A DNA stretch of 63,987 bases, the filler included, from Reclinomonas americana ATCC 50394 (lineage: Eukaryota), in the NCBI GenBank assembly GCA_048213135.1. It is 11 parts of 11 records of this genome, joined end to end, with 100 filler letters (N's around TTAATTAATTAA, not from the genome) between each part and the next. Parts side by side here need not be neighbours in the genome. Positions count along the whole stretch, not along the records: positions 57,371 to 60,025 come from AFZH01017653.1; 10 more parts are not named here. One strand, 5' to 3'. Numbering within the stretch: position 1 is the stretch's first letter; every line of letters starts with the position of its first letter. Position numbers and translations under genes: made by a program. Positions 9,142 through 61,859 of this stretch are shown one piece after another. The notes beneath the pieces are model-generated. The model was not told where the DNA came from. It worked only from the letters and a program-made list of their open reading frames with translations, and did no database searches.

Positions 9142-9909
9142 CTCGGCTGCGGCCGTCGCGATGACAGTGTTGCGGTTCTCACGGTTGCGCTGCATGGAGT
9201 CGGTTCTAAAAGAGCACTACAAACACTGAACTAAGAAAAGGGGTGTGTTCTTCTGCTGAAGAAAAGAGGCAGGAGATGACGATTGCTCGAGAAACGAGAT
9301 GAATGAGAAATGAAGGCCGAAACCAGGCTATTTATACCCTCGGAGGAGCCATTCTCGGCCCCCTGCTCTATTTCTGGCCTCTGTAACGGCGGAGGGAAAC
9401 GGAGGTGGTCTACATTAGTGTGTGGTGGGGTGTGCATACGGGGGCGAAAGAGTATGTGTGTGTGTGTGGAGACGTGCGGTACGGTCATGGGACCTCGAGC
9501 GCGCTGCGTGCGGGTGCATGATCATGATTGCAGAAAATAGAACCCACCGTGCGCGACCGCGAGACTCGGATGCAGGTGGATGCACGAGCGGGTTGCAGTT
9601 TCCTTGTGGCGCCAGGCATGCTCAGACAATGGAAAGCCTTCCAGCACGGCAAATTTGAATACCCAGTATTGATATCTCACGATCGGAAATACTCATGTCA
9701 GCATCGCCTCCACCGACCTGCCACACGCAAGTACGCATGTAGGTCATTCTCCTCCGTTGCACTCAAATCGCCAGCTTGCACGAAAACCACACCACACTGA
9801 AAACGCATTTGTTCGGTCGCGAGTGGTGTGTACAGATAAGATTCTCTCTCGCACTCAACAACACCCACGCACGCTTCTGCACCTGCTGCTGCTGTCAGCT
9901 GCTGGGAAG

Positions 9910-12891
9910 ATGATAATGGAGCCGCCACCGGTGCCGCGCTCCCTCTTGCAGCAATCACCCGGTTTGCACTCTCACTCTCCCTCCATCGCATCACGCTTCA
10001 CTGCCCACTTGTTCTCTCTCACACACACACACACACGCACACACTCTTGCAGAAGGCCGAGTGCCATCGGTCCTCGCCTCTCGCGAGGCATTCGCACAGG
10101 CAGTGGCACCGCCATCGCCCACTCACTCATCGCCAGGTTTGTGCCATCGTGTTGTCAGTTTGCATGCATGCACTCACAAACACGCACTCTCGGGGAGTAC
10201 AGGCACCGGCAGTGCCGCCTCCATGGTGCGCTCGCCCACCACCTCCAAGCTGGCCATGCGCAAGAGCATGGGCGGAGCAAGTTGCGCTCTCTTTGTTGTG
10301 TGTTCTACCTATCCCTCACTCACTGCGAGATGTCAGGCCTGCCTCGCCTACCCGTGTATGTTTCGTCGCAAGACGTCGCCGCACTGCCCGTGCGACTCGA
10401 CACGGCGAGTTCCTCAAGCAGTCCGACCACCGCAGCGGGCTTCTTGACGCTGACGGTGGAGGATCGGGATGGGCCGGACGCATTCTTGCGACGAGTTGTC
10501 TCGCCGATGCAGTCGCCGCTCTCTCGTTGCGTGCCTCTCCCTCTGTCTGTCTCTTTGTGCATGTGAGTGCAGCCGCTCATTCATCGCGCGCACGCAGCTA
10601 TCGGAGACCACGTGGTTTCTGCATCACCACCACGACCATTGCAACAGTGTTGCGTGTTCTCTCTCTCTCCCCCCCATGTCACTCATTCATGCGCGCCACT
10701 CACTGGCTGGAGCAGTGGTGGAGGCCGGCCTGGTACACGCAGCGTGTCAGACAGGCGATGCTGCCTTCTTGGAGACCGTGTTGCGCGACCACGCGGACGC
10801 CAAGGCCGCCATTCTCGCACGTCGTGATGGATACAGTTTTCCCGAGGTTTGTGCTGGCAATCTCGCCATCGAGTGCGCGTCTCTCACGCCACCGTTTCGT
10901 CTGCAGGAGGGTGACATCCGCACCGCCAAGTCGGCATTCTCGCTCGCCTGTCGCTACGGTCACGCCGATGTGGTGGAGGTTTTGTTGCGGCATGTCGGCC
11001 CCGACGAGGCCACCGATAAACCTGGTCGAGCCACAGGTGCGCTCGCTTCTCACTTGCCCGTTTCCCTCTCTCTCTCTCTGTCTCTCTATCGCTGCCCAAC
11101 AACTGCCGCTGCTGGCAGGTCTGATGCACGCCGCAAGTGGCAACCATTTCTCCGTCATGCACCTGCTGCTTTCGGCCGGCGCCAATCCCGTGCACACTCT
11201 ACACGCTCCGTTCGCCTCCTGGACGCCGCTGCTGCGTGCGTGTCAGATGCGAGCGTCGCTGGTGGTTTTCGCTCGCCTGCTGCAGTCGGTGGCTCCCGGA
11301 CTGCAACAGCATGCCCTCGCCGAGGCGGTGCTGACGCCCACGGGCCTCAGCGACACGCTGGCTCTGGATGCGGCCGGCTACACTGCACTGCACTTTGCCG
11401 CGGTGGAAGGGCACGCCGATAAGATCCAATACTTGGTCGAGTGCGGCTGTCGGCTCGAGGCTGCCACCAAGGCTGGTGCGTGTGATTGCGCGTCCTAGCC
11501 GTGTACGTGTTCTCTTGTGATTCATTCATTGTGTTTTGCGTTGTTGTCGGCAGGCGAGAGTCCATTGCTGTTGGCGGTTCGTGCCGGTCGTCTGGTCGCA
11601 TGCGACGAGCTGCTGCGACACGGCGCCGATCTGGAGCATGGAGACTCTCACGGACGCACGCCGCTCATGACGGCCATTGTGCAGCGCGATGCGACTCTCG
11701 CGTCCCGCCTCCTCCGCTCCGGAGCGAATCCATTGGCAGTCGATCACGATGGTGCGTTGTGTGTTCCTTGCGGTTGCGTGGGGCGTGGTGCTGAATTGGC
11801 GGCTTCTTCTCAGGTGTCCACGCGTTGCTGCTGGAGATTGCGTACAGTGGCCCGCAGCCATCGTCGCTCTTTGGCGACATGCTGGCCGCCAGTCCCGAAG
11901 ACAACTACTTTGATTTGACGGAGAGTTGCGTACCAGTTGATCGGTTCGACAGCCCGTCATATCAACCTCACAGTGTCTCGTTTTGCCTTGCAGATATCAG
12001 CCTGTTGCACTGGTGCGCCGCCACGGGACAGTACTCGGCCATGGCAGCGGTACTCGATCGTCTGCGAAGGCTGTCGGACGGGCACACCCTCATCTCGCAG
12101 CTGGCCAATGCCCCTGTCGTTGAGTGTGGCAACTTCACCCCACTGGTGTGCGCCCTGTGTGCACCCGTCGACGGTGACCCAGGTCTCCTGCCTGTGCTGT
12201 TGGAGGTCGGTGCGAATCCCAGCATCGCTGTGCGTGTCGGCTCCGAAGGTCCGTCACACATGACTTGCTCGCCTGCTTCTAGTGCCTCACCTGGTGGGAG
12301 CAACGTGCAGACGGGGTGACGCCACTCATGTTTGCTGCGGCGAGTAAGAACACAGCTGCCGTGTGCGAACTGATGCGACACGGTGCACGCATGTGTGACA
12401 AGACAAGTGGAGGGTGGACGGCGCTGCATTTCGCGGCGGCCGCCGGAGCCTCGAGCCTCCTGTCGGTCCTCATCGAGTGCGGCTGTCACGGCGACATCGT
12501 GGACAATCGTGCGTATGATGGGCAGGTCGGCCCACTCCCCCAGACGCTTTCTCACACTCGCATAACAGGCAATCGCGATGCGGAGGAAGTGGCCACGCAG
12601 TCGCGCAACATGCTTTCGGTCGCGATCCTGGAGTCGCATCGACAGAGACGCAAGAGTCGGAGGCGGTGAGTCGTCATTCTGCGCATTCCCTCTTTACAAA
12701 GGTGTGCTTGTGCTGACGCCACTCGCAGGCGAAGACCTGAATCGGAGTCGGTCAGTCTCCGCGAAGTGGTGGCGCCACTCGCGGCCATTGTGGAACTGCT
12801 GAATGGTGGCGCTGCGCGCATGCTGCACCGTGTGCTGCAGGACGCCGTGCATGTGCAGCCGGTCGGCGGCGCGCCAGTGACTGTACAGTAG
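9910..12891 (+). CDS. Ankyrin repeat protein (multi-exon)
   Basis: Repeated ankyrin motifs: SAFSLACRYGHADVVEVLL, GYTALHFAAVEGHADKIQYLVECG, GRTPLMTAIV..LLRSGANP, GWTALHFAAAAG. Start is approximate. Confidence 0.85.
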
Positions 12892-19938: not shown

Positions 19939-22428
19939 ATGGGCCTCGTCAAAGCACTGGTGTGGCTCATCATTCTGGGCGTGACTGCGTTGCTGGGAGT
20001 GTCGACGTACTTTGCGCTCACAGCCTCGCCCCCTGCGTACAACACAGTTGAGTGTGTGTGTGTGTGCCCCCCCCCTTGCCTCATAGTGTCTGCTCTCTCC
20101 ATGTGTGCGTGCGTGCGCGTGTGTGTGCGTGCGTGTGTGTGTGTGTCATGTCTGAGACATGCTTGCACAGGCGGTGTCGCAGCGCTCACTGTCGGCGCCG
20201 TTGGATGGACTCGACAGTCGGCAACTGGCGGAGCGACTGGCCAAGGCGTGCTCGTTTGAGGTGCGTGCTGCATGATCGGATTTGCAGGAAAACGAAGTTG
20301 AGGTGTGATGGTGATGATGATGGTTAACGTGTTGCACAGACGGACAGCTCGGCGCCGGGGCCGGAGCTGGACGCCAAGTTCGACAGTCTCTTGCAGTGGA
20401 TCAAGGAGGCGTTTCCGCTGGTGCATCAGACGCTGCAGCGTGAGTTGCCGCTGCGCGGCAAGCACTCGATGATTTACAAGTGGAACAGCATTCGTGGAGG
20501 TCGTTTTTTCAAGTTGTCTTGTCTCACGTTGCACCTGTGTGTGGTCGTGGTGGCTCACGTTGTTGCTGTGGCTTGCGCAGCTGGCAAGAAGCCGGTGCTG
20601 CTCATTGCGCACTTGGACACTGTCGCGGTGGCCAGCGAGACGCTGCATCAGTGGGAGGGCTCGCCGCGTGGCGAGGTGAAGAATGGCAAGGTGTACGGAC
20701 GCGGTGCGTTGTTTTCGCCTCTCTTCCTCTTCGTCGCGCCCCCACTCACATTCGTCTTCGCGCAGGCACGCTGGACGATCTCGGCAGCGCCATTGGTCTG
20801 CTGGAGGCCGTCGAGCACCTGCTGTACCGCTCGCCAAACTTCGATCCGGCTCGCACCATCTACCTCGCCTTTGGTCACGACGAGGAGGTGAATGGCTCCG
20901 GAGCCAAGGAGATGGCCGACTTGTTCGCGTCGCGCGGCATCGAGTTTGAGGTTTGCCTGTTCCGCCATCCACAACCATGTTCCCCGCCCATGATCTCACT
21001 CCGCGTGTAGCTCGTGCTGGACGAGGGTGGTGCGGTGTCTACCGATGGGTTCCCTGGCGTCAGCCAGCCGATTGCAGTGGTCTCGTTCACGGAAAAGGGA
21101 TTCGTCACGGTCGCAGTGTCGGTGGTCACCGAGGGCGGTCACTCGGCCCAACCGCAGGCGGTGACCACCATCGACATGTTGGCCACGGCTGTGCGTGCGG
21201 TGCGCGGTGATCAGTTCCCGTCGACGGTGCATCCGTTGATGGAGCAGCTCCTCTCCACGGTCGCTATGGTGTCGTCGCTGCCGAAGCGTGTCATTATGGG
21301 CAATCTGTGGTGGACTGACCCGCTCGTGCGTGGCATGTTGGCCAAGAACAAGTTGCGTGTGCCTGTCAACTCGCTGGTGGACGACGCCCTGGTTGCGACT
21401 CACGCGCGCGGAAAAAATCGTGCACAGTGTGTTGAACGCCATGATCCGCACCACTTGTGTGCCGGTGCAGATCCAGAGTGGCTTCGCGTACAACGTGGTG
21501 CCGCAGACGGGCAAGGTGATTTTCAACTGCCGTCCCATTCCGGGAGAGACCATCAAGTCGACTCTGGCACACATTCGTCACAGCCTCGACCGCTACGGTC
21601 TCACCTCCGCCACTGTGGAGCTGGTGCCGGAGAGTTGCGAGATGTTGACTCCTTATTCCTTTTCATTTTGGGTCCCGTGACTCACCAGATTGAGTTGCAG
21701 GCATGAGCAACGACCCGCCGGCGACGTCGCCCGTGGACTCGCCAGCATTCCTCTATCTGGCGGGCCAGATTCGCTCGCAGTTCTCGGATGCACTTGTCGT
21801 GCCGTCGTTCACTGTGGGCGCCACCGATGCCCGCTCCTACCACAAGGTCTGCGCCAATGTGTTCCGCTTCATGCCGGCCAAGCTCTCCAGCGCCGACCTC
21901 AAGCTGATGCACTCGTTGCGTGTGGCGACTGTGTGTTCGACTCGTGTGTGTGTGTGTCGCTGAAACTCACAGCTCTCGTGCAGAGCCAATGAGCACATTG
22001 ACATTGAGAATTACACCGGCCAGGTGCGCTTCTATGTGCGCTTCATGCACAGCCTCGAAGAGCTGCAGAACAGCCCGAGCCTCGCCGAGCGCAAGGCCGA
22101 GAACGAGGCCAAGCTGCGAGCGGCTGTTGCTCCTCCGCCACCGCCGCCACCACCTCCTCCACCACCACCACCAGTGCAGCAGCAATACGAGCGCTATCAG
22201 CCTCCGACTCCGCCACCACCACCGCCACCGCCACCGCCACCACCACCAGTGGCAGAGCCGGAGCCGGAGCCGGAGCCAGAGTCAGTGCCAGAGCCGGTGC
22301 CAGAGGTCGAGCCTGAGCCCGAATGGCCGCAAGCACAAGAGCAGCAGTGGCAGCCGGAGCAGCACTACGATCCCACACAGCAACACCAGCAGTACGAGCA
22401 GATGCATGCGCCTACGGACGAACTCTGA
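19939..22428 (+). CDS. M20 family metallopeptidase (carboxypeptidase S/PM20D1-like) with N-terminal signal anchor and Pro/Glu-rich tail
   Basis: Motifs LLIAHLDTV, GRGTLDD, FGHDEE, LDEGG, EKG, GGHS, NVVP, GATDAR, MHSANEHI. Hydrophobic N-terminus. Confidence 0.92.
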
Positions 22429-22475
22429 GCTGTGCATGCAGTGCGTGACAGAAGTGAACCGCGCGAGGTGCATTA

Positions 22476-23431
22476 TTATTTCTTCTTCCACATGAGATGA
22501 GCGCGATCCATGTCCTTGGCGAGAATGGCGTACACCCACATATCGTCGAGTTGCGATCCGATATAGTACGCCTCGCGATGAATGCCCTCCAACAGGCATC
22601 CGACGCGCTGCAACAAACAACAGCAAGCAGCATGAGGCTTCATAAAACGGAACACAGAAATAGACCCCACATGCACGGAACCGTGGCGACGCCCTTTGAC
22701 TTGTGATTATCGCAGTGAATCTGCACACGGGGGCGGCGGCGGCAACTGAGCGATGCACGAACAACGGCACAGAGAGGGAGAAAGGGCAAAGCACCTCAAA
22801 CACCAGGCGATTGAGCGACACCTCCGGCAACAGCGGCGCCGGTGTTCCATCGTCATCGCCCACACAATCGACCGCCTGCAGCTCACTGCGACGCCCAAAC
22901 GCCAGCTGGACCATGCACTGCACGGCACGCGTGGCCAGCCCACGGCCCACACAATCCGTACGCAGCCAGTAGCCAACAAACGCGCTGCGATTGAGCGGAC
23001 TGATGGAGAAGAAGGCCACTGCGCCCAGCACTCGGCCTCCAACCGCCGCCGACCCACTGCCACCTCCAACCTCCTCCTGATCACCCTCAATGATCACGTA
23101 CGTGTATGCAGTGCCTGCTGCTCGTCCATCTGTGGCGCGTTTCACCCATGCAAGACCCGACTCTTCTCCTGCGTGTGCGCGTGTCAGCGATGCAAAGGGG
23201 ATAAGAGAAGTACACAAAGCGCCTGCGCAAACCGTTAAAGGTGGCAGCCCACGTGATCCACCGTTGCATTTGCTCCTTGGAGAACATGATGCTCTCAGTG
23301 ACGCGCGCAAGATGTCGCTGCATGACGGGTTCCAGTCGCACACCGCAGTCTTCCAGCTGTGCTCCCACAGTAAGTACACATCTCTCTCACTCCCCAACAG
23401 CAACAGCAAGACGCACCTTGATCGCCGACAT
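22476..23431 (-). CDS. GNAT N-acetyltransferase, RimJ/RimL family
   Basis: Spliced product contains AFVGYWLRTDCVGRGLATRAV..LAF..LNRLVFEIHCDNHKSKGVATRVGCLLEGIHREAYYIG..DDMWVYAIL. Confidence 0.85.
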
Positions 23432-23522
23432 TCGTACGCAAAAACGAGCTTTCGTCCACCCAATGACCTCTCCGATCACACTCCGCTCTCGTTCTTTGTG
23501 TCAGTGTGAGCACGCGCAAACC

Positions 23523-49790: not shown

Positions 49791-50234
49791 TGTGTGCGCG
49801 CCGACAAACATGTTTTTCGATGTATGTTGTCAGTGACAAGTGTGTGCCACACATCGAGGTCGCGCAGACAACAATCTCTCTCATCAAATTCCTCGCACTG
49901 ATCATCTCTCTGTGGTGCGGCACACACACACACGCGCGCGCAGAGAAGCACACACAGACGCAGACAGAGAGACAGACGTGTGCGCGTGGAGTCCAGTCAC
50001 TGTGACAATGTCACACTTGTTCACACACACACGCGCACACGCGCACAGGCAGAGAGAGAGACTGGGGACGAGAGACGCGCATGTGCGTGTGTGTGTGAGA
50101 GCGATGTTGTCGTGGTGGGCGAAACGCAACACTTGTTCTCCATTCGCGCTGAGTAAGTGTTTTTTTGGTCACCAAATTGCGCGTGATATTTCACATATTC
50201 ATTCATCTTTGCCTCGCTCTCTCTCTCTCTCTTC

Positions 50235-53200
50235 TCATGGCCATCGCTCTACCAGGGCGCCCACCCGCTCCTCCAATTTCCTGAGTACGACCCAATTGGC
50301 GTGCTCGGCTACCACTTCGGCCACCTGCCGGCACATTAGCGGGATTGTGCCGGCCGGTGCGGTCTCCAGCAACTCCACCGCCGATCGCACCATCTTCACC
50401 TCCGTGCGCATCTCCTCGACCTTCTTCTCCCGCGTCAGCACAGCGCGGTTCGTCTGCAGTGCTTCGCCAATGGAGGCCACGGACTCGGCGGGCAGCACTG
50501 TGTGTGCGGGAGAGAATGAGTTGTCCGTTTCCAGCGTGTGTTTTTCCGCGGCGAGGCAATGATATGTTCTTACCGGCACAGCAGCGATCCAGTAGCTCCG
50601 TCAGGTACCGCACCGTGTACTCGTCCATCACGAAGGCCTCGACGAGAGGAACCAGGCTGATCAGCAAGTTGGCCATTCCCTGATAGTCCTCGTCGCGCCT
50701 GTACGCCTCGGCGAACCACGGCAGCAGCAAAATGTACTCGCGCGATCGTGGTCCCAGAGTGGCCAGCTTCCTCTCGCGCACCCACTGCAGCAGTGGCAGT
50801 GCTTCGCGGTGGCGGTCCACGCTGTAGTATGCCTCGCAGAGGCGCACAGTCGCCGTTTGTACCATCTGCGACAAAGTACCGTTCAGCGCAGCTGATGCGG
50901 AAAAAGGGAACGTGTGTGACGCACAGGGTGATCTTCGCCGCTGGCCGTACGGCGTGATGCGAGGCATGCAGTGAGCATGCTGATGCCGTCTTGTTCGCGT
51001 TCGCGTTGTTGCTGTGACGAAAAAAATGAGTGGATCCTCCAGCAGCAATGGACGAGCACGATGAAAGATCAACTCACCACCAGTGCAAGTCCCACTGGCG
51101 AGTCGATAAAAGAGGAGAAGCATGTCAGCTAACAAAAAAGGCTGCACAGAGCATCGCATGCACGTAACGAATCTCCTTGGTGGCCAGTGTGTCGTCGTGA
51201 TCCTTGCCAATGGTCTTTTCGAATGCTGCGGCCGCCGAACTGTGCCATTCACACACACAGTCAGTGTGAATCGACAAACGCTCCTCTCTATCTCTCGCTT
51301 CGACACCACGCACGTCAACAACTCAATCGCCTCGTCCAGTTCGCCATTCTCGCGCAGACAGTTGGCCAAGTTGACCTGCATCGCGAGCAGCAGTGGATGG
51401 TAGTTGCGCAGTACGGCCTTGGCCAGCTTGTAGCCGTCGCGTTGCGCATCAACAGCCTCTCGTCGCCTGTCGTTGGCCAGCGCAATGCCAAAGTTGTTGA
51501 CCGCCTATCGACAACAACAAAGAAAATGTTGAAACACAACAACTCTTCAAAAAACCAGTGCCAGGCACCACGTGCTCACCTCCAGCAGTTGCGTGCTGGG
51601 CGGACCAGCTGCCTCGAGCAGCGGCCGCACCTCGTTCAGTGTGGCCAGTCCTTCATCTATGAGCCCGGTGTACGAGAGCATCATGCAGCGTCGCACGCGC
51701 GCCTGCAGCACCATCGGATGCTCGTCGCCGAGAATGGCCCCGCGTTCCACAATCACCTCGGCCAGCAGTTTTTCCGTGCGCTCGTACCAGCGCGAGGCGT
51801 GGAACGCGTGTGCCAAGCCAAACTTGATGTCGGCCAAGGCCAGCGGATCCTGCAGCTCCGGGTCGAGGTCCAAGTGCAATTCGAGCGTCTCCTGTGACAG
51901 CGCCTCGGTGCGATGCACGTCGGATTTGAAGGCGTAGATGGCCTCAGCGAGCACCACTCGCGCGCGCAGTGTGGTCGGCCGGTTGAGACCAAACACAGCC
52001 ACACGATGCTCCACATTGCGCTCGATAACACGAAGAGCCTCGCCGTAGAGTCCATCCTCCAGATACGCCCTGCTTGCATGCCTCGTGAGTTCCGCGCCAC
52101 ACACAAAGAGGCACATACACGCACACACACACGCAACTGCGCCAAGTACTGCTCCGACCGCATGGTGGCAAAATGGTCGGCGCCGAGTTCTGTTCGCCGG
52201 CCACTCATCACCAGCTGTTGCATGGCGGAGCCGTCGGAAAACTTGCCGCATGCGCACAACACTGCAATAGCGAGTGAGCACGGCAGGAGGCATGAAAAGC
52301 ACACCCCCCTCTCTTCTCTGTCTGCTCTCTCTCTCTCACCAAGTGCGCGTGTCTCCATGACATCCAGCCGCCGCAGCGGACTGGCAATGCTCTGCATCCG
52401 CTGGTACACAAAATCGGAGGCCGCATCGGCCCAGAAAAACTTGCCCGCCACAAACCAAAAGTAGGCCAGGCGATCGAGGGCACACAACACATCCGAGGTC
52501 ACACGTTCCTTGTCGACCGGCTCACAATCGGTGTACTGCATGAGCCGCATGGCCACGACCCGCGCCACCGGTGTCAAGGCCGTCGGCGCACGATCCGGCC
52601 GCACTCGACGCGCCACCAGCAGCACATCGCCCAGCGCAATCAAGGCCTCCATGCGCCGCTCATCCACCGGCCCAAAATGCACGGCGGCTGCGGCCTGCGC
52701 CCTGTCAAAATGCGCAGCTGTGATTTGCCACACGCACTCCTTGCGCATGCACTCGAGACCGGCAGTCATGGTCGTCTTGTGATCCTCGCTGGTCCACGCT
52801 GCAAGTATGATGGCAAGGGGAGAGTGAGGAGTGGGAGTTCCGGGGGTGTAGTGTAGGATGACCAACACACCAGTTGGCACCGTGGTGTCGGACAGCACCG
52901 GCAAGGGCTCATTGGCGGTCAGGTAGGCGGCTTGGATGTGGCATGTTTTGGCGAGGAGGGCCTGGTAGGTGGCGGCGGACTTGCTGTGAGCACCGCCCGG
53001 CGACGACGACTCGGCAATGTGGCTGAGGCGTGCGAACAGATCCTCTGTCGTCGTGTTCGAGAATGTCGGTGAGTTATCGCACACACGTGTGCGTGTGAGA
53101 GGTGTGTGAGAGAGGAGAGGGAAGCACAGATTAATGTGTGTGAGTGTGTGACGAAAAACCCATGTCAGTTGGAGGACATGATGAACGGAGACAGTGTGCG

Positions 53201-55928: not shown

Positions 55929-57270
55929 ATGGCGTCTCCACCACCACCGCCCTTCGTGCACCCGCAGCTATCACCGCTTCCCTCGGCATCATCACCACCA
56001 CCTCTGTCACCTTCACCACTGTCCGCAGAATCTCCATCCTCGCACACAGTCACCACTCATCACCACCACCACCATCACCATCATCACCACACTGACGGCG
56101 ACGACGATGACCCGTTTGTGCGCATTCCACTGTACTCTCTCAACGGCAGCTCTACGGCACCATACGGCGACGCAGTCGATGGACACTTCCACGCTGATGA
56201 TGATGATGATGGCAGTGATGAGGAGGATGTGCATCGACGAGGCAGGGGGTCGCGTGTGCCACTGATGAGGAGAGAGGAGAGCGATGTGACGATGCCACGC
56301 AGCAATGCGGTGGTGTCGGCCACCAGCAACAGTGCAGCGGCGGGCGTGGTGCATCGCAGCGATAGCACTGGTGGTGGTGGTGGTGGCAATGGCGAGTGGC
56401 CAGCCAGTGTGCAGCATGGGCGCTACATTGGCAACGGTGCCAGCTACAGCACGTCGAGTTGGAGTGTCAGCAGCACGGCGCGGAGGGCTGGCGAGTCGCA
56501 GATGTGAGTGTACCCTTGCCAAGTCGCTTACAACTCCCTTTTCTCTGACAGGCACTCTCTCTGTTTGTGGCAGGATGCGTGAGGCTGGAAGACAGATGGG
56601 TGCGTGATCTGCTTGTCATCCTCCACCGACGGTGACTGACGTGGTTGGTGTGGTGGCAGACCTGTTTGGACGACTGGGCTTTTGGGTGTCGCACTCGTAC
56701 TGTTTGATTGTGCTGCTCACGGTGTCGTACTCGCCGCTGCGCGAGGCCATCACCAAGCACAACGACTACTGGCCACTGCTCATCCAGCTCGTTCTGTTCG
56801 GCCTGACCATGTACTTTCACATTTCCTGCTCGCTGAATCGAAGGCCATACAACAACGAAGGTGGGCGCGTGTCACGCGTGTGGTGGCTCTGTTTCCCTCA
56901 CTCAACACTTCGTGCGAGTGCAGAGCTGGCCGAGTTGGACGTGGATCCGGAGGATGGTGCGTGTTCTCGATGCGAGGCGCCGAAACCGATGCGTGCCAAG
57001 CACTGCCGCATGTGCGGCCATTGTGTTCCACGATACGACCGTTGCGATGTTGTCGTACATGCCACACGCCAGCAACACAATCTCTCACATTGGTTCCGGT
57101 GCAGATCACTGCCCCATTGTCGGCAACTGCGTCAGTGAGCGAAATCACATGCTGTTTGTCGGCTTGCTGTTTGTGGAGATCTTCCAGGCACCGTACACGT
57201 GCTACGAGGTGCGCCATCGACACTTTCGCGTGGTGGCCTTTGGTTTGTGTTTTTCACCAGTGGCGCATGC
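55929..57270 (+). CDS. DHHC palmitoyltransferase (3'-partial)
   Basis: [41 protein letters not shown] after removing intron 57041-57104. TM helices upstream. Confidence 0.93.
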
Positions 57271-57553
57271 NNNNNNNNNNNNNNNNNNNNNNNNNNNNNN
57301 NNNNNNNNNNNNNNTTAATTAATTAANNNNNNNNNNNNNNNNNNNNNNNNNNNNNNNNNNNNNNNNNNNNGAGAGAGAGAGAGATGGGAAGGTCGAAGAA
57401 GAGAAAGAAAAGAGAGAAGAGAGAAAAGGAGAACAAGAACACGAAGAGAAGAGAAAACTTACCACACAGTTTATTTCTGTAGAAACAACGAGTGAGTCGG
57501 ACTTGCAGCAACAAGAGAAGAAAGTGCAGCTGTGACGCAACATGAGTTTGGGC

Positions 57554-60025
57554 TTACTCCTTGGAAAATGAGTTCAAGGGCCTCTTGGGCCGCTTGTTTG
57601 AGTTGGATCGGCACTTACTCGCCGATTGCGACCGTCCAGGTATACGTACAGATGGGGCACTCGAACCCTCACTGCGAACGAAGGGAGACAACAATGAGGA
57701 CAGCCTCAACACAAAAGAGCACAATGCATGGGAGGGATCACATCCAGTGGCACGCACGGTTGCTGTTGGTGCTCGACAAGTGTTCCTGCAGGTCGCGATG
57801 CAGATTGCAATTGAGCTCGACCAGTTCGAGCTGCAATCCTGGCCGATTGCCTCATCCCTGCGGGCGGTGACGGCTCCACGACCTGCGCGAACACGTGTTG
57901 GAATGTACAAGAGAGGAATGAGAGCATTGAGAAGAGTACCTCCTCCTCCTCCCCCCCCTTCCACTCTCCGTCCTCCTCCTCCTCCTCCTCCACCACCTCC
58001 TCCTTCTTGTTCTTCTTCTTCTTCTTGGTCTTCTCCGACGTCGACTTCTTGGCCCGCTTCTTCTTCGGCTCTGTCTCCTCCTCATCCTCCTCGCCCACCG
58101 TTGATCGGGGACGCTTGCAATTGGCGGGCAACTGCAGCGGCACACTCTGCAGCACCAAGCCGCTCAACAGAATGTTCCACGCACCACGAGCGTCACGGAA
58201 CACCGTTTTGCCTTCCAGCGGGCACCCCTCAGTGTTGCACACGATCGTCTTGTCGCTCCCCACCTTCTTCCCTGTTCCGCAACCCGGGCAGTGCATAGTC
58301 GATCCCGCCTCCGAGAGTGATAGCACCAACAGCTCAACGAACGACGCATCCTGTTGAGATAGCACTCTCGTCTTGGCAGCCTGTGCACACACACCGGGAG
58401 AGAGGGAGAGAGAGAGAGAGAGTGAGACAGTGAGAAATCAAGGCAATTTCCGATCGGTCTGTTGATTTACGTACGCACCAACGCTTCCGCCAGCTTCTTC
58501 ACCACGCCAAAGCCAGAGTACTGCATCTTCAGCACAGTGTCGCGTCCGATGCATCTGTCCTGCCACTCTTTGCGATAGTCGACCCACTGCCGTTTCTGCA
58601 TCATGTGCGCCATCTCCTTTGAAAATGGTGGCAGGATGAGAACCGCGTTGACAATGGCCGCCCTGCGTGGTTGACAGGCGCAGGTGAATGAGACACCACC
58701 GCTTGCAATCACCACACCATGCTCATGCACTCACTTGCGCACAAAGGAGACTGCGTTGTTGTACGCAGCGGCCTGCAATCGACGAGTGATGTTCGCCAGT
58801 CGCCGCTCAATCAACTTGCGTGCACGCGCGTCCACAATGCGACCATACGACGCAAGCTTCCGCTGCAGCACGGACTTTTGCTGGAGTAGCGGGAAAATGA
58901 CACGTGCCGCCCAATCCTTTCCATGCTCGTCGATCGCCCAGTTCACGCCAGCACCTGTGCGCGTGACATGGCGTGAGAAATGGTGGAGAACGGGGAGGGG
59001 GAGGGAGGGAGGGGACAGGCCAAGGGGAAAGGAGATGAGGAGAGAACAGCATGAAGAAGAAGAAGAAGAGAGGAGAAGAGGGAAGAAATGATCGATGCCA
59101 TGAGAAGAAACGGAACGGAGGTAAGGCAAGGGAAGAGAGTAGGAGAGGAGAAAAGTGATGAGCGGCGGAGTTAGCAACAAGAAGAGAAAGATGAAGAAGA
59201 GATGAGAGAGATAGAAAGAGAACAGAAAGAGAAAGAAAGCGTATTAATAGATGCATATGAGAGAGAGTAAGGAGAGATGAAATGAGAAAAGGGGAGGAGA
59301 GGAGTGAACGATGAGAGGAAATGAAGAGAGGAAAAAGGACGTCATTCATGCAGTCAATCCTGATACACGTACACACGCAAGAGAGCATGAAACCACTCTG
59401 GTACACACTCCCACATCCACTTTTGCCTCCCTGCCTCATGAGAACAACATACCAACGGTTGCCACTGTGGCGAATCTCCGCACACCATAGTCAACGCCCG
59501 ACGCACAGAGCGTGAGTGCCTTCCAGATCGCTGAACCCACGTCGCACGCTCGATGGCTACCGCCGCACCGGTGAGGCGGCGATCCACACACCAAACACCG
59601 CGATACGTTGCCTTTTGCGTCGACAAAAAACGCAAAGCACATTTCATCGCTGTCAGATGCATCGGCCTCCACCGCCGGCTCCGCATCGCCGCCACCTCCA
59701 CTTCCACTTCCACTTCCACTGCCCTGGTCGTCTCCACCTCCACCTCCACCTCCACCTCCTGCACCACCACCGCTGTGAATGTCGGGTGGTTTCGCGCGCC
59801 TCCGTTTGCGACATCGTCCCTTGTGGCGTGCACGCCGCCGCACTTTCGGCTGTGCTGCGTTCATCGACGAGCGGAGATTCGCCAGCACAGAAAGAAGTGT
59901 TCGCCGGGCCTTTCGCGATTCTGCACGCATGCATCAGCACATCTGATCAGTGAAACAAGTTGTCCCACACGCAGCCAAAGTCAAGCTCACCATGTATTCG
60001 CTGCTGCCGTCGCGCAGCATAGTAA
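57554..60025 (-). CDS. Fanzor (eukaryotic TnpB-like) RuvC nuclease domain, Fanzor2-like, intron-containing, open at the 5' gap
   Basis: Exons 60025-59991, 59920-59453, 58954-58735, 58662-58479, 58380-57940, 57882-57758 and 57671-57554 splice in frame. Motifs: RuvC-I GVDYGVRRFAT, a long basic helix, ILPPF, LSEAGSTMHCPGCG, CNTEGC, and RuvC-III FRDARGAWNIL. Confidence 0.82.
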
Positions 60026-60416: not shown

Positions 60417-61766
60417 TGGTCACCTTCGCCGAGAATCCCATCGGCATCCATTGCCACGCCATCGTGCATCTTGTCAGTGCGACCCCACATTAGAAGCGTA
60501 GAACGTTCACTCTCGATCGCGAGGGCATCTGTAATCGCGGCATTGGATGAGCACAGAGACAGAGGGGAGGGAGAGCGAGAGAGAGGACATGGAGAAGGAC
60601 AAAATGACAACAAGAGTGTGGGGGAGAGAAAGAGAGAGAAAGAGAGAGAGCGCAACTGTTGATCCTGGTTGTTGTGGAGTTATACTCCTCAAGATGAATA
60701 ACGGCAGTTTTGATCGCCGCAAACGACCGCAGGTCCCAGCGATGGGGATTGCGTTCCAGCAATGTCCGCATCCGCTCGGGCTCCAACGCAGCCTTCCGCA
60801 GCGCCAGATCCAACAACCGAAAACTGTCGCGCTCACCGTCGTCGCTGTCGAAACGGAACGGCAACTCGCCGAGTTGTGATTGGAGCACGTTGACCGGTAC
60901 GGTGGACAACACGCCCACGATGCGATGCATTGCGCCGATGATGGTTGTTGACGATGCGAGGAACCCTGCTGGAATCGCTTGTCGCAGCTGCGCGACAGCA
61001 AACTGAACCGGCCACGACTCCGCTGCCCTCGGCACCTGTTGCGACGAACTGGCGGCCGAGGTTGCGGCACCCCGTTCATCGCCATCGTCCGCCTCCATCT
61101 CCTCGGTTGCGCGATTAGCTGCCCAGGACCGGTACCGCAATTCCTCGACAAGAATGCGGACGGCCTCGTCGACGACGTTGCGCGCGTATTGGAGAACCGT
61201 GGCATGGTATGCCGACACACGGGCGCGACACGAAGTTGCAGCAGGCGACTGGCCCTTCTGTGCGTCTCGCATCGCACACGCCATGTCCAGACGGTAGGTG
61301 TTCCACTCTCGCACTACGATGTCGTAATGAGAGGAGAACGACGATCTGCTGAGTTGCTCCAGAACATCGCGATGATCGTCACTCGCGCCCTCCTGGATCA
61401 CTTCTGTCGCCAACGCACGCGCACACGCCAGCACCTTGTAGGTGACAAGCAGGGGGTCCTGCAGCAGCGCCGTCGAATTGTGTTCACAGAAGCCGGACCG
61501 TCCAAGTGCATCCAGCGTCACCAAGTATTGCTGCACCGTCCACTCAGCAGCCTCCGGATGTGAGCGCGGCAACAGGTGCTCGCGAACAACCGGGTTCCAC
61601 AGTGGCGAGTCGTTCAGCTCAAGAGTGGACGGCGGCGAGCCCGGCGGCCGCTCTCGCAATTCACGCTCCAAGGCCGAAGCAACGGGAGTGGCCTGTGCCA
61701 GTGGTATCGCTTGTTTCTCGACAGATTCTGCGCATGGGCGTGAGTCGACGACAGCCAAAAAATATC
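60126..61766 (-). CDS. Internal exons of an unknown protein, probably the upstream part of the Fanzor-like gene
   Basis: Exons 61766-60657, 60528-60424 and 60333-60126 splice in frame with no stop and run open into the gap. Confidence 0.65.
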
Positions 61767-61783
61767 CTGCACTACGAAAGAAT

Positions 61784-61784
<1 letters not shown>

Positions 61785-61859
<75 letters not shown>
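61785..61859. repeat. (CA)n microsatellite at the assembly break, intronic
   Basis: Pure CA run that continues on the other side of the linker (61960-61970). Confidence 0.95.

Follow-up and report, generated by a model that had tools for sequence, protein, structure and literature searches.

An intron-split gene of Reclinomonas americana with a TnpB-type C-terminus, a candidate divergent Fanzor

Results

Structure of the locus

The stretch of DNA analysed here, hereafter the window, comprises 63,987 bases of the Reclinomonas americana ATCC 50394 assembly (GCA_048213135.1) and consists of 11 contigs (1.7-11.9 kb, GC 0.54-0.61) joined by N44-TTAATTAATTAA-N44 spacers; features on either side of a spacer need not adjoin in the genome. 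One of these contigs, AFZH01017653.1, carries on its minus strand an interrupted gene whose product resembles, most clearly near its zinc ribbon, the nuclease TnpB and the eukaryotic and giant-virus homologues of TnpB known as Fanzors. To our knowledge, Fanzors are the only known RNA-guided DNA nucleases of eukaryotes, and their potential as compact genome editors has attracted interest.

A script that spliced the minus strand at the given coordinates produced a joined frame of 1,590 nt (529 codons plus the stop TAA at 57556-57554) that runs through seven exons and six introns of 70, 498, 72, 98, 57 and 86 nt, all six of which start with GT and end with CAG (Table 1). The full spliced frame is covered by no single listed open reading frame (ORF). 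The first-pass annotation of this DNA had proposed that six GT-AG introns hide one continuous frame, and our splicing reproduced it; the motifs reported there (GVDYGVRRFAT, ILPPF, LSEAGSTMHCPGCG, CNTEGC and FRDARGAWNIL) are all present in the spliced frame, and the three codons singled out (Asp GAC, Glu GAG and Asp GAC) are exact. In spliced numbering, the landmarks used below are Asp155, Leu251-Pro252-Pro253, Glu326, Cys333, Cys336, Cys350, Cys355 and Asp365. Because the window is made of joined contigs, position 60025, which had been given as the end coordinate of the gene, is the end of a contig and not the start of the gene. No second copy of the gene-bearing contig occurs elsewhere in the window, and DNA reads from three runs assembled into a single 452-nt contig that is identical to 59509-59682 and 59774-59935, alongside a repeat match of 35 nt.

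Table 1. Features of the nuclease-like gene and its contig, in window coordinates
Feature	Position	Strand	Description
Gene-bearing contig	57371-60025		2,655 bp, GC 0.55; artificial N44-TTAATTAATTAA-N44 spacers at both ends
Putative exon 1 fragment	59991-60024	-	Runs off the contig end; open frame and GTGAGC donor only; speculative
Exon 2	59453-59920	-	Basic cluster (RRR, RKRRR), poly-Gly repeat, then RuvC-I candidate GVDYG (Asp155, 59492-59490)
Intron 2	58955-59452	-	498 nt, GTATGT...CAG, 75% C+T; size outlier
Exon 3	58735-58954	-	Strand and long helical stretch (LQRKLASYG...), lining up with the TnpB QRKLSRK..GS helix
Intron 3	58663-58734	-	72 nt, GTGAGT...CAG
Exon 4	58479-58662	-	Strand VLILPPF at the position of the canonical TnpB RuvC-II Glu (Leu251-Pro252-Pro253; Pro codons 58631-58626), then helices
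Intron 4	58381-58478	-	98 nt, GTGCGT...CAG; frame restored only by its removal
Exon 5	57940-58380	-	Strand LLVLSLS, Glu326 (58311-58309), zinc ribbon CPGC-x13-CNTEGC (58290-58222), RuvC-III FRDARGAWNIL (Asp365, 58194-58192)
Unverified tail model	57554-57939	-	Intron 5 57939-57883, exon 6 57882-57758, intron 6 57757-57672, exon 7 with stop 57671-57554
3' flank	57371-57553	-	183 nt; AATAAA 57475-57470, then C+T-rich repeat to the contig end

Homology of exon 5 to the TnpB C-terminus

Several comparisons show exon 5 to be homologous, at the level of sequence, to the C-terminus of TnpB. Its 85-aa core (58126-58380, minus strand), used as the query for library searches, matched the Pfam family PF07282 (Cas12f1-like_TNB) at E 0.0031 and 18.1 bits, the NCBIfam model NF040570 (guided_TnpB) at E 8.2e-4 over profile positions 341-387 of 389, and the transposase family PHROG 506 at E 0.13. 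When aligned by hhalign to a profile of 11 TnpBs, exon 5 reached a Prob of 97.0% (P 9.3e-11) over 55 columns, at positions 331-385 of 434, and its matches in the ESM Atlas were PF07282 clusters in 30 cases out of 30 (score 0.94). A tblastn search of plasmids (7.3 Gb) returned 73 records, the best at E 2e-4, in which about 50 residues matched at 39-46% identity; among the best 40 of the 73, 16 matches lay on genes annotated 'RNA-guided endonuclease TnpB', 17 on a 'transposase', 6 on no feature and 1 on an unannotated record, and all 40 belonged by name to halophilic archaea. The six plasmid matches that were retrieved were all IS200/IS605 TnpBs of 398-420 aa, with tnpA adjoining in three. From phages (E ≤ 10), tblastn returned six records at five distinct places, one of which encodes a helix-turn-helix repressor and four of which are TnpB C-termini, confirmed by NF040570 in three cases and by a family search in one: an Acidianus virus, a Nodularia phage remnant (NF040570 E 1.6e-13), a Staphylococcus phage (6.8e-59) and an uncultured phage (8.7e-57). 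The matched stretch was always the last 50-60 positions of TnpB.

The TNB domain, comprising the zinc ribbon and the RuvC-III helix D-x-N-A-A-x-N-I, is present in exon 5 in variant form, with C-x4-C as the second cysteine pair and Arg for Asn at RuvC-III. The TnpB/Fanzor C-terminus recognised in the first-pass annotation was borne out for this module by PF07282, NF040570, the ESM Atlas, tblastn and hhalign.

Close relatives were not recovered. The 85-aa piece had seven multi-stretch matches in a phmmer search of 1.84 billion representative proteins, and the six that were checked were RCC1, FG-GAP, Ig-like and similar proteins, with no TnpB among them; exon 5 matched three PDB sequences at E ≤ 10, all adhesin or antifreeze repeats, and no Fanzor, TnpB or Cas12 chain. 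As phmmer gave only repeat proteins in both collections, the sequence lies far from every solved Fanzor, TnpB and Cas12. A single-sequence AlphaFold2 model of exon 5 alone was all-beta with a mean predicted local distance difference test score of 65.6 and was too poor to use; with this low-quality model, Foldseek found nothing in the PDB at E ≤ 0.001. As for profile building, a contig scan with three archaeal-virus TnpBs gave 4 loci and a homologue search gave 120 near-identical Sulfolobales TnpBs, which were of little use for a broad profile; a hidden Markov model (HMM) made from Sulfolobales TnpBs only was too narrow, scoring 4 bits, and was set aside.

Collinearity of the upstream exons with TnpB

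Spliced residues 96-400 were aligned by hhalign to two TnpB profiles. Against a profile of 7 sequences the score was 57.8 (P 1.8e-7), whereas none of 150 shuffled sequences exceeded 25.0 and the reversed one scored 14.2; against 13 sequences it rose to 73.4 (P 8.7e-10) over 234 collinear columns (query 13-295, template 134-405). The 13-sequence alignment spans the last WED strands, RuvC-I, the helical hairpin, beta-4, the lEyK helix, beta-5, the zinc ribbon and RuvC-III, and in this comparison the upstream exons are collinear with TnpB from RuvC-I through RuvC-II. The order of motifs in the first-pass annotation (RuvC-I, a non-acidic RuvC-II position, Glu before the zinc finger, RuvC-III) is accordingly that of TnpB. 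With the true C-terminal part held fixed and the N-terminal part shuffled, none of 120 sequences reached the real score of 73.4 (maximum 72.1, mean 66.1); because the real score exceeds those of the shuffles, although the N-terminal part is weak on its own, the upstream exons add a modest and correctly placed signal.

Both the HMM and hhalign put GVDYG on the GxDxG of TnpB, and this motif is likely to correspond to RuvC-I. By eye, GVDYGVRRFATVATV resembles the phage TnpB sequence GVDLGEKHLAAVATG and the archaeal TnpB sequence GIDVGILKYAHDT, and 8 of the 16 residues of the GVDYG hairpin are common to the phage TnpB hairpin (manual count). Taken singly, exons 2, 3 and 4 had no TnpB match in Pfam, NCBIfam or PHROGs, and exon 3 stayed below the recognition mark in the ESM Atlas.

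Candidate active site

In the hhalign alignment, the column of the canonical RuvC-II Glu falls on Leu251, which is followed by Pro-Pro, and Glu326 stands exactly six residues before Cys333 (E326-x6-C333). According to published descriptions, Fanzors and a subset of TnpBs termed 'TnpB2' have the canonical Glu replaced by Pro/Gly and use a Glu about 45 residues downstream (PMC10530073), and this alternative Glu is defined as lying six residues before the zinc finger (PMC10711439). The shifted Glu of the first-pass annotation is upheld in that Leu-Pro-Pro occupies the canonical site and a Glu precedes the zinc finger; its attribution to Fanzor2-type proteins is not, as the relevant portions of these papers assign the shift to all Fanzors and some TnpBs (PMC10530073, PMC10711439). 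The separation of the canonical position from Glu326 is 74 residues, against about 45-50 in print (25-30 extra).

The same literature describes Fanzors as 'near exclusively' having DPG at RuvC-I and takes DPG plus the alternative Glu as the Fanzor fingerprint (PMC10711439); DPG occurs in no minus-strand frame of 58381-60025. The regular expression published there, in DPG and non-DPG forms, is D[P or not P]G-x(120,160)-E-x6-CxxC-x(12,18)-CxxC-x(4,8)-D (PMC10711439). The corresponding gaps in the gene are 168, 6, 13 and 9, and a relaxed expression matches residues 155-365; both strict forms fail, because two gaps are out of range and the second cysteine pair is C-x4-C. Since the relaxed pattern E-x6-CxxC...C-x(2-4)-C...D also arises about once per 60 shuffled windows, the motif string alone would not be enough to identify the gene.

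This background rate bears on the possibility that the whole resemblance is fortuitous, the gene being either a eukaryotic zinc-ribbon protein of unrelated descent or a frame assembled from non-coding DNA by a free choice of GT-AG sites. Very many windows were screened, the matches to curated HMMs are all below cut-off, and the phmmer searches of the representative proteins (none of the six checked of seven being TnpB) and of the PDB brought up repeat proteins. Such an origin is nevertheless hard to reconcile with the hhalign P of 9.3e-11 and with the 150 shuffles, none of which came near the real score, or with a tblastn E of 2e-4 in 7.3 Gb, annotated TnpB or transposase genes in 33 of the best 40 of 73 records, a single family in 30 of 30 ESM Atlas matches and an alignment confined every time to the same last 50-60 positions of TnpB. 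We consider chance resemblance very unlikely.

As a separate observation, the uncultured phage LR756508.1 encodes at 850-2064 a 405-aa TnpB that has a Glu at the canonical position (VVIGEL) as well as a Glu six residues before the zinc finger; its RuvC-III form, RD..GAWNI, is common to the protist gene.

Coding signal and introns

The GC contents of third and second codon positions (GC3/GC2) were 0.68/0.44 in exon 3, 0.75/0.35 in exon 4 and 0.79/0.42 in exon 5, with lower GC in the introns, and this GC3 signature backs the frames of the three exons. With intron 3 removed, QRKL and the beta-4 strand are 57 residues apart, compared with 55 in a haloarchaeal TnpB (manual count). The C-terminal tail of exon 5 is Lys/Glu-rich, with KKKR and KKKKK clusters. 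For exons 1, 6 and 7 the open frame is the sole support: the exon 1 fragment is without homology or coding signature, the tail at 57554-57939 is without homology while its frame stays open, and in exon 6 the GC3 signal at 57865-57775 favours a frame other than that of the first-pass annotation.

The introns were compared with those of a CFAP52/WDR16-like WD40 gene on another contig (37446-38900, minus strand), which is 31-33% identical to three metagenome proteins and whose alignment is broken by stop-containing insertions of about 60-95 nt that read GTGAGT...CAG, GTGCGT...TAG and GTTTGT...TAG. As this gene carries short GT-AG introns, the host is intron-rich, with introns like those of the nuclease gene, and the presence of a CFAP52-like gene indicates that it is probably a flagellated eukaryote. 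The intervening segments of the nuclease gene, five of six of which are 57-98 nt long as in the WD40 gene, look like introns of the host itself, in agreement with the earlier description of them as host-style. Eukaryotic residence is further indicated by the six GT...CAG interruptions together with eukaryotic-type genes (CFAP52-like WD40, DHHC, ankyrin) on other contigs.

These features also bear on whether the contig could be a contaminant carrying a broken prokaryotic TnpB pseudogene, whose 'introns' would be insertions or frameshifts. Haloarchaeal IS200/IS605 TnpBs are indeed the best pairwise matches within the plasmid and phage collections, but their identity is just 39-46% over about 50 residues, all six interruptions have GT...CAG borders and five of them the length of the WD40 introns, and the removal of intron 3 gives a TnpB-like spacing. 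The contig (GC 0.55) also has C+T-rich simple repeats in common with other contigs, and contamination of this kind seems to us scarcely credible.

Sequence upstream of the nuclease core

Upstream of residue 108-140 nothing aligns to the TnpB profiles, and only 105 nt of contig remain on the 5' side of exon 2. The poly-Gly stretch of exon 2 is encoded by a GGAGGT/GGAAGT hexamer repeat. A perfect 14-nt inverted repeat inside exon 2 (59468-59481 and 59871-59884, 389 nt apart) flanks the basic and poly-Gly stretch; by a rough estimate, about 0.01 such 14-nt inverted pairs would be expected by chance in 2.6 kb. Intron 2 contains a second D-x-G motif (AKVDVGVCTRVV) at 59346-59435 on the minus strand, in the same frame and right after the stop that follows exon 2, which could be a chance occurrence or an alternative or former exon.

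Other features of the window

No Rfam family was found in the window. Ordinary host genes with long ORFs include an ankyrin-repeat gene (9840-11495, plus strand), a TPR gene (50206-51504, minus strand) and a GNAT acetyltransferase gene (22285-23475, minus strand). On the contig preceding the gene in the window, an ORF at 56608-57138 (plus strand) gave a partial DHHC palmitoyltransferase match (PF01529, E 7e-6) that covers no more than the first 34 positions of the profile and is probably truncated by an intron. On a 1.7-kb contig on the other side, a 455-codon open frame (60493-61857, minus strand) is without Pfam or NCBIfam match at E ≤ 1 and unlike the TnpB profiles; contigs side by side in the window need not be neighbours in the genome.

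Discussion

Our results are, in our judgement, probably best explained, although not with strong confidence, by a divergent Fanzor-like gene, seen here without its 5' end and long resident in an intron-rich protist. The locus would be a nuclear gene of an intron-rich and GC-rich eukaryote, its 5' end cut by the contig boundary, that encodes after splicing the RuvC nuclease and zinc-ribbon (TNB) module of a TnpB-superfamily protein; it would be a Fanzor if the term is taken broadly to mean a TnpB homologue of eukaryotes. The alignment predicts an acidic triad of Asp155 in GVDYG, Glu326 as the alternative RuvC-II residue, as in Fanzors and 'TnpB2', and Asp365 in RDARGAWNIL, and the basic clusters flanking the core would act as nuclear localisation signals. 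The WED and REC domains would be encoded upstream of the contig, and the protein may bind a guide RNA derived from the 3' region of its own gene and cut DNA beside a short target-adjacent motif with a single RuvC site, as in the solved Fanzors. The RuvC and zinc-ribbon module looks intact, and purely by analogy the product would be an RNA-guided DNA endonuclease; the 'potentially active' of the first-pass annotation is too strong for a 2.6-kb fragment. The survival of an open frame, a coding-type codon bias and the triad through divergence and intron gain suggests that selection has maintained the gene and that it is not a dead copy.

Several observations weigh against this interpretation. The hhalign score comes mostly from exon 5, which alone gave 52.3 against the 7-sequence and 66.2 against the 13-sequence profile, while the N-terminal part alone scored 24.1 against a diverse profile, a value that one of 100 shuffles equalled, and misaligned against haloarchaeal and combined profiles. 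The RuvC-I piece taken alone had an hhalign Prob of 1%, and the active site had been called 'intact' in the first-pass annotation, a word that is too strong because it depends on this assignment. The repeat-rich 5' part of exon 2 has no coding signature in the annotated frame. The curated models were matched below their cut-offs, PF07282 with 18.1 against 26.3 bits and NF040570 with 18.7 against 100. Within the site itself, RuvC-I reads DYG and not the DPG of Fanzors, the second cysteine pair is C-x4-C, the gaps from G to E (168; published 120-160) and from Cys to Asp (9; published 4-8) are too long, and Arg replaces the Asn of the usual D-x-N-A-A at RuvC-III. In the TnpB superfamily, the N-terminal WED and REC domains hold the guide RNA and the heteroduplex, and the guide RNA (omega/reRNA) is encoded at the 3' end of the gene, as far as the right end of the element. 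The 139 residues that precede the aligned block had no WED or REC match in the TnpB profiles, the 183 nt past the stop showed no unusual RNA fold (z -0.81; 42 of 200 shuffles fold as well), and the contig has no terminal inverted or direct repeats beyond low-complexity repeats. Lastly, relatives were absent from 240 homologue candidates, from the phmmer search of 1.84 billion representatives and from scans of metagenome and viral contigs.

Much of this would also be consistent with a relic or domesticated gene that descends from a TnpB or Fanzor and keeps only the RuvC and zinc-ribbon half. Translation would then start at the Met of exon 2 (model codon 31) right before the basic cluster, an in-frame ATG being present there, and the protein, having no WED or REC domain, could not load a guide RNA as TnpB does; the locus would be either a decaying copy or a host gene whose product has a different function, for instance in DNA binding or as an unguided nuclease. 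Only about 55 non-repetitive residues separate the basic and poly-Gly stretch from RuvC-I, and they match nothing within roughly the first 130 positions of the TnpB profiles. The unusual features of the site (DYG, C-x4-C, Arg for Asn and some 25-30 extra residues between the two Glu positions) would fit such a history, as would the failure to find a second copy in the window or terminal repeats and a structured 3' RNA on the contig, and bacterial TnpBs have been turned into regulators (10.1101/2023.11.30.569447). However, the contig stops 105 nt above exon 2, so that upstream exons are out of view, an open frame with a GTGAGC donor reaches the contig end, and none of the three acidic positions has been lost, although a regulator or relic could do without them. 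We regard this history as unlikely, if by no means negligible.

A separate eukaryotic capture of a TnpB with D-Phi-G (D-hydrophobic-G) and the alternative Glu, outside the pro-Fanzor (DPG) lineage, strikes us as rather improbable; the captured gene would have gained host introns and nuclear localisation signals later and would now be maintained in one copy as a host gene of a protist lineage that has been little sampled, a sequence of events to which we give the same low credence. If this were true, RNA-guided nucleases would have arisen independently in eukaryotes once more, or the gene would be the first domesticated case.

The divergent Fanzor-like gene that we favour is not new in its main claim, because Fanzors that carry introns and a shifted Glu have been published before. 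One trait appears uncommon, namely D-Phi-G plus the alternative Glu in a eukaryote. The unusual combination at this locus is that of DYG and the alternative Glu, a divergence beyond curated models and a host without close relatives among 1.8 billion representative proteins. Should the gene prove intact over its full length, the sequence diversity known among eukaryotic TnpB descendants would be enlarged, and the gene would bear on whether Fanzors arose once, as set out in one published account (PMC10711439), or several times, as set out in another (PMC10530073).

Comparison with known systems

Among known proteins, the haloarchaeal IS200/IS605 TnpBs of Haladaptatus, Haloarcula and Natrinema plasmids were the best pairwise matches within the plasmid and phage collections (E 2e-4 to 0.2). 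They share with the protist gene the string AG(S/T)T..C..CG ... RDA..AWNIL, at 39-46% identity, and by eye also GxDxG..(K/R)(Y/F)A and the QRKL helix. They differ in keeping the canonical Glu (VAVE[ND]L), with Pro at the position of the alternative Glu and CxxC twice, and in having full WED and REC domains, no introns and tnpA alongside.

In work on TldRs, these domesticated TnpBs are said to lose their catalytic residues and stay RNA-guided, and the protist gene differs from them in keeping its acidic residues. As bacterial TnpBs domesticated into regulators, they provide, in the published summary, a precedent for a TnpB descendant that is kept as a host gene (10.1101/2023.11.30.569447). Judging by titles and abstract openings, none of 12 papers, out of 37 on Fanzors and domestication, describes a domesticated eukaryotic Fanzor.

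Fanzors themselves (Fanzor1 and Fanzor2, with SpuFz1 and ApmFz2 as examples) resemble the gene in their eukaryotic hosts, spliceosomal introns and basic clusters of nuclear localisation signal type, and intron capture, reaching about 9.6 introns per kb, and the gain of nuclear localisation signals have been reported for them (Jiang et al., PMC10530073). The two groups differ in that Fanzor2 has an IS607 TnpA as neighbour and is closely similar to TnpB, whereas Fanzor1 has a eukaryotic transposon context and insertions in REC and WED. The canonical RuvC-II position is non-acidic in both, being Pro/Gly in published Fanzors and Leu-Pro-Pro in the gene, and the Glu lies six residues before the zinc finger. 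The order D...E-zinc finger-D is likewise common to both; the distance from E to D is 39 in the gene and 34 in ApmFz2, for which residues D324, E467 and D501 are given (PMC11832414). The gene differs from Fanzors in its DYG in place of DPG, its C-x4-C, the spacings that fall outside the published expression and the 74 residues, rather than about 45-50, between the two Glu positions.

The combination of D-hydrophobic-G, a missing canonical Glu and a Glu placed six residues ahead of the CxxC is common to the gene and to the TnpBs described as 'Ealt + D-Phi-G' (PMC10711439), or 'TnpB2', such as TvTnpB (PMC10530073). The gene may descend from this clade or from a Fanzor in which the Pro has changed. 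In the published descriptions these TnpBs are prokaryotic and intron-less proteins of about 400 aa in IS200/IS605-type elements, unlike the intron-split protist gene.

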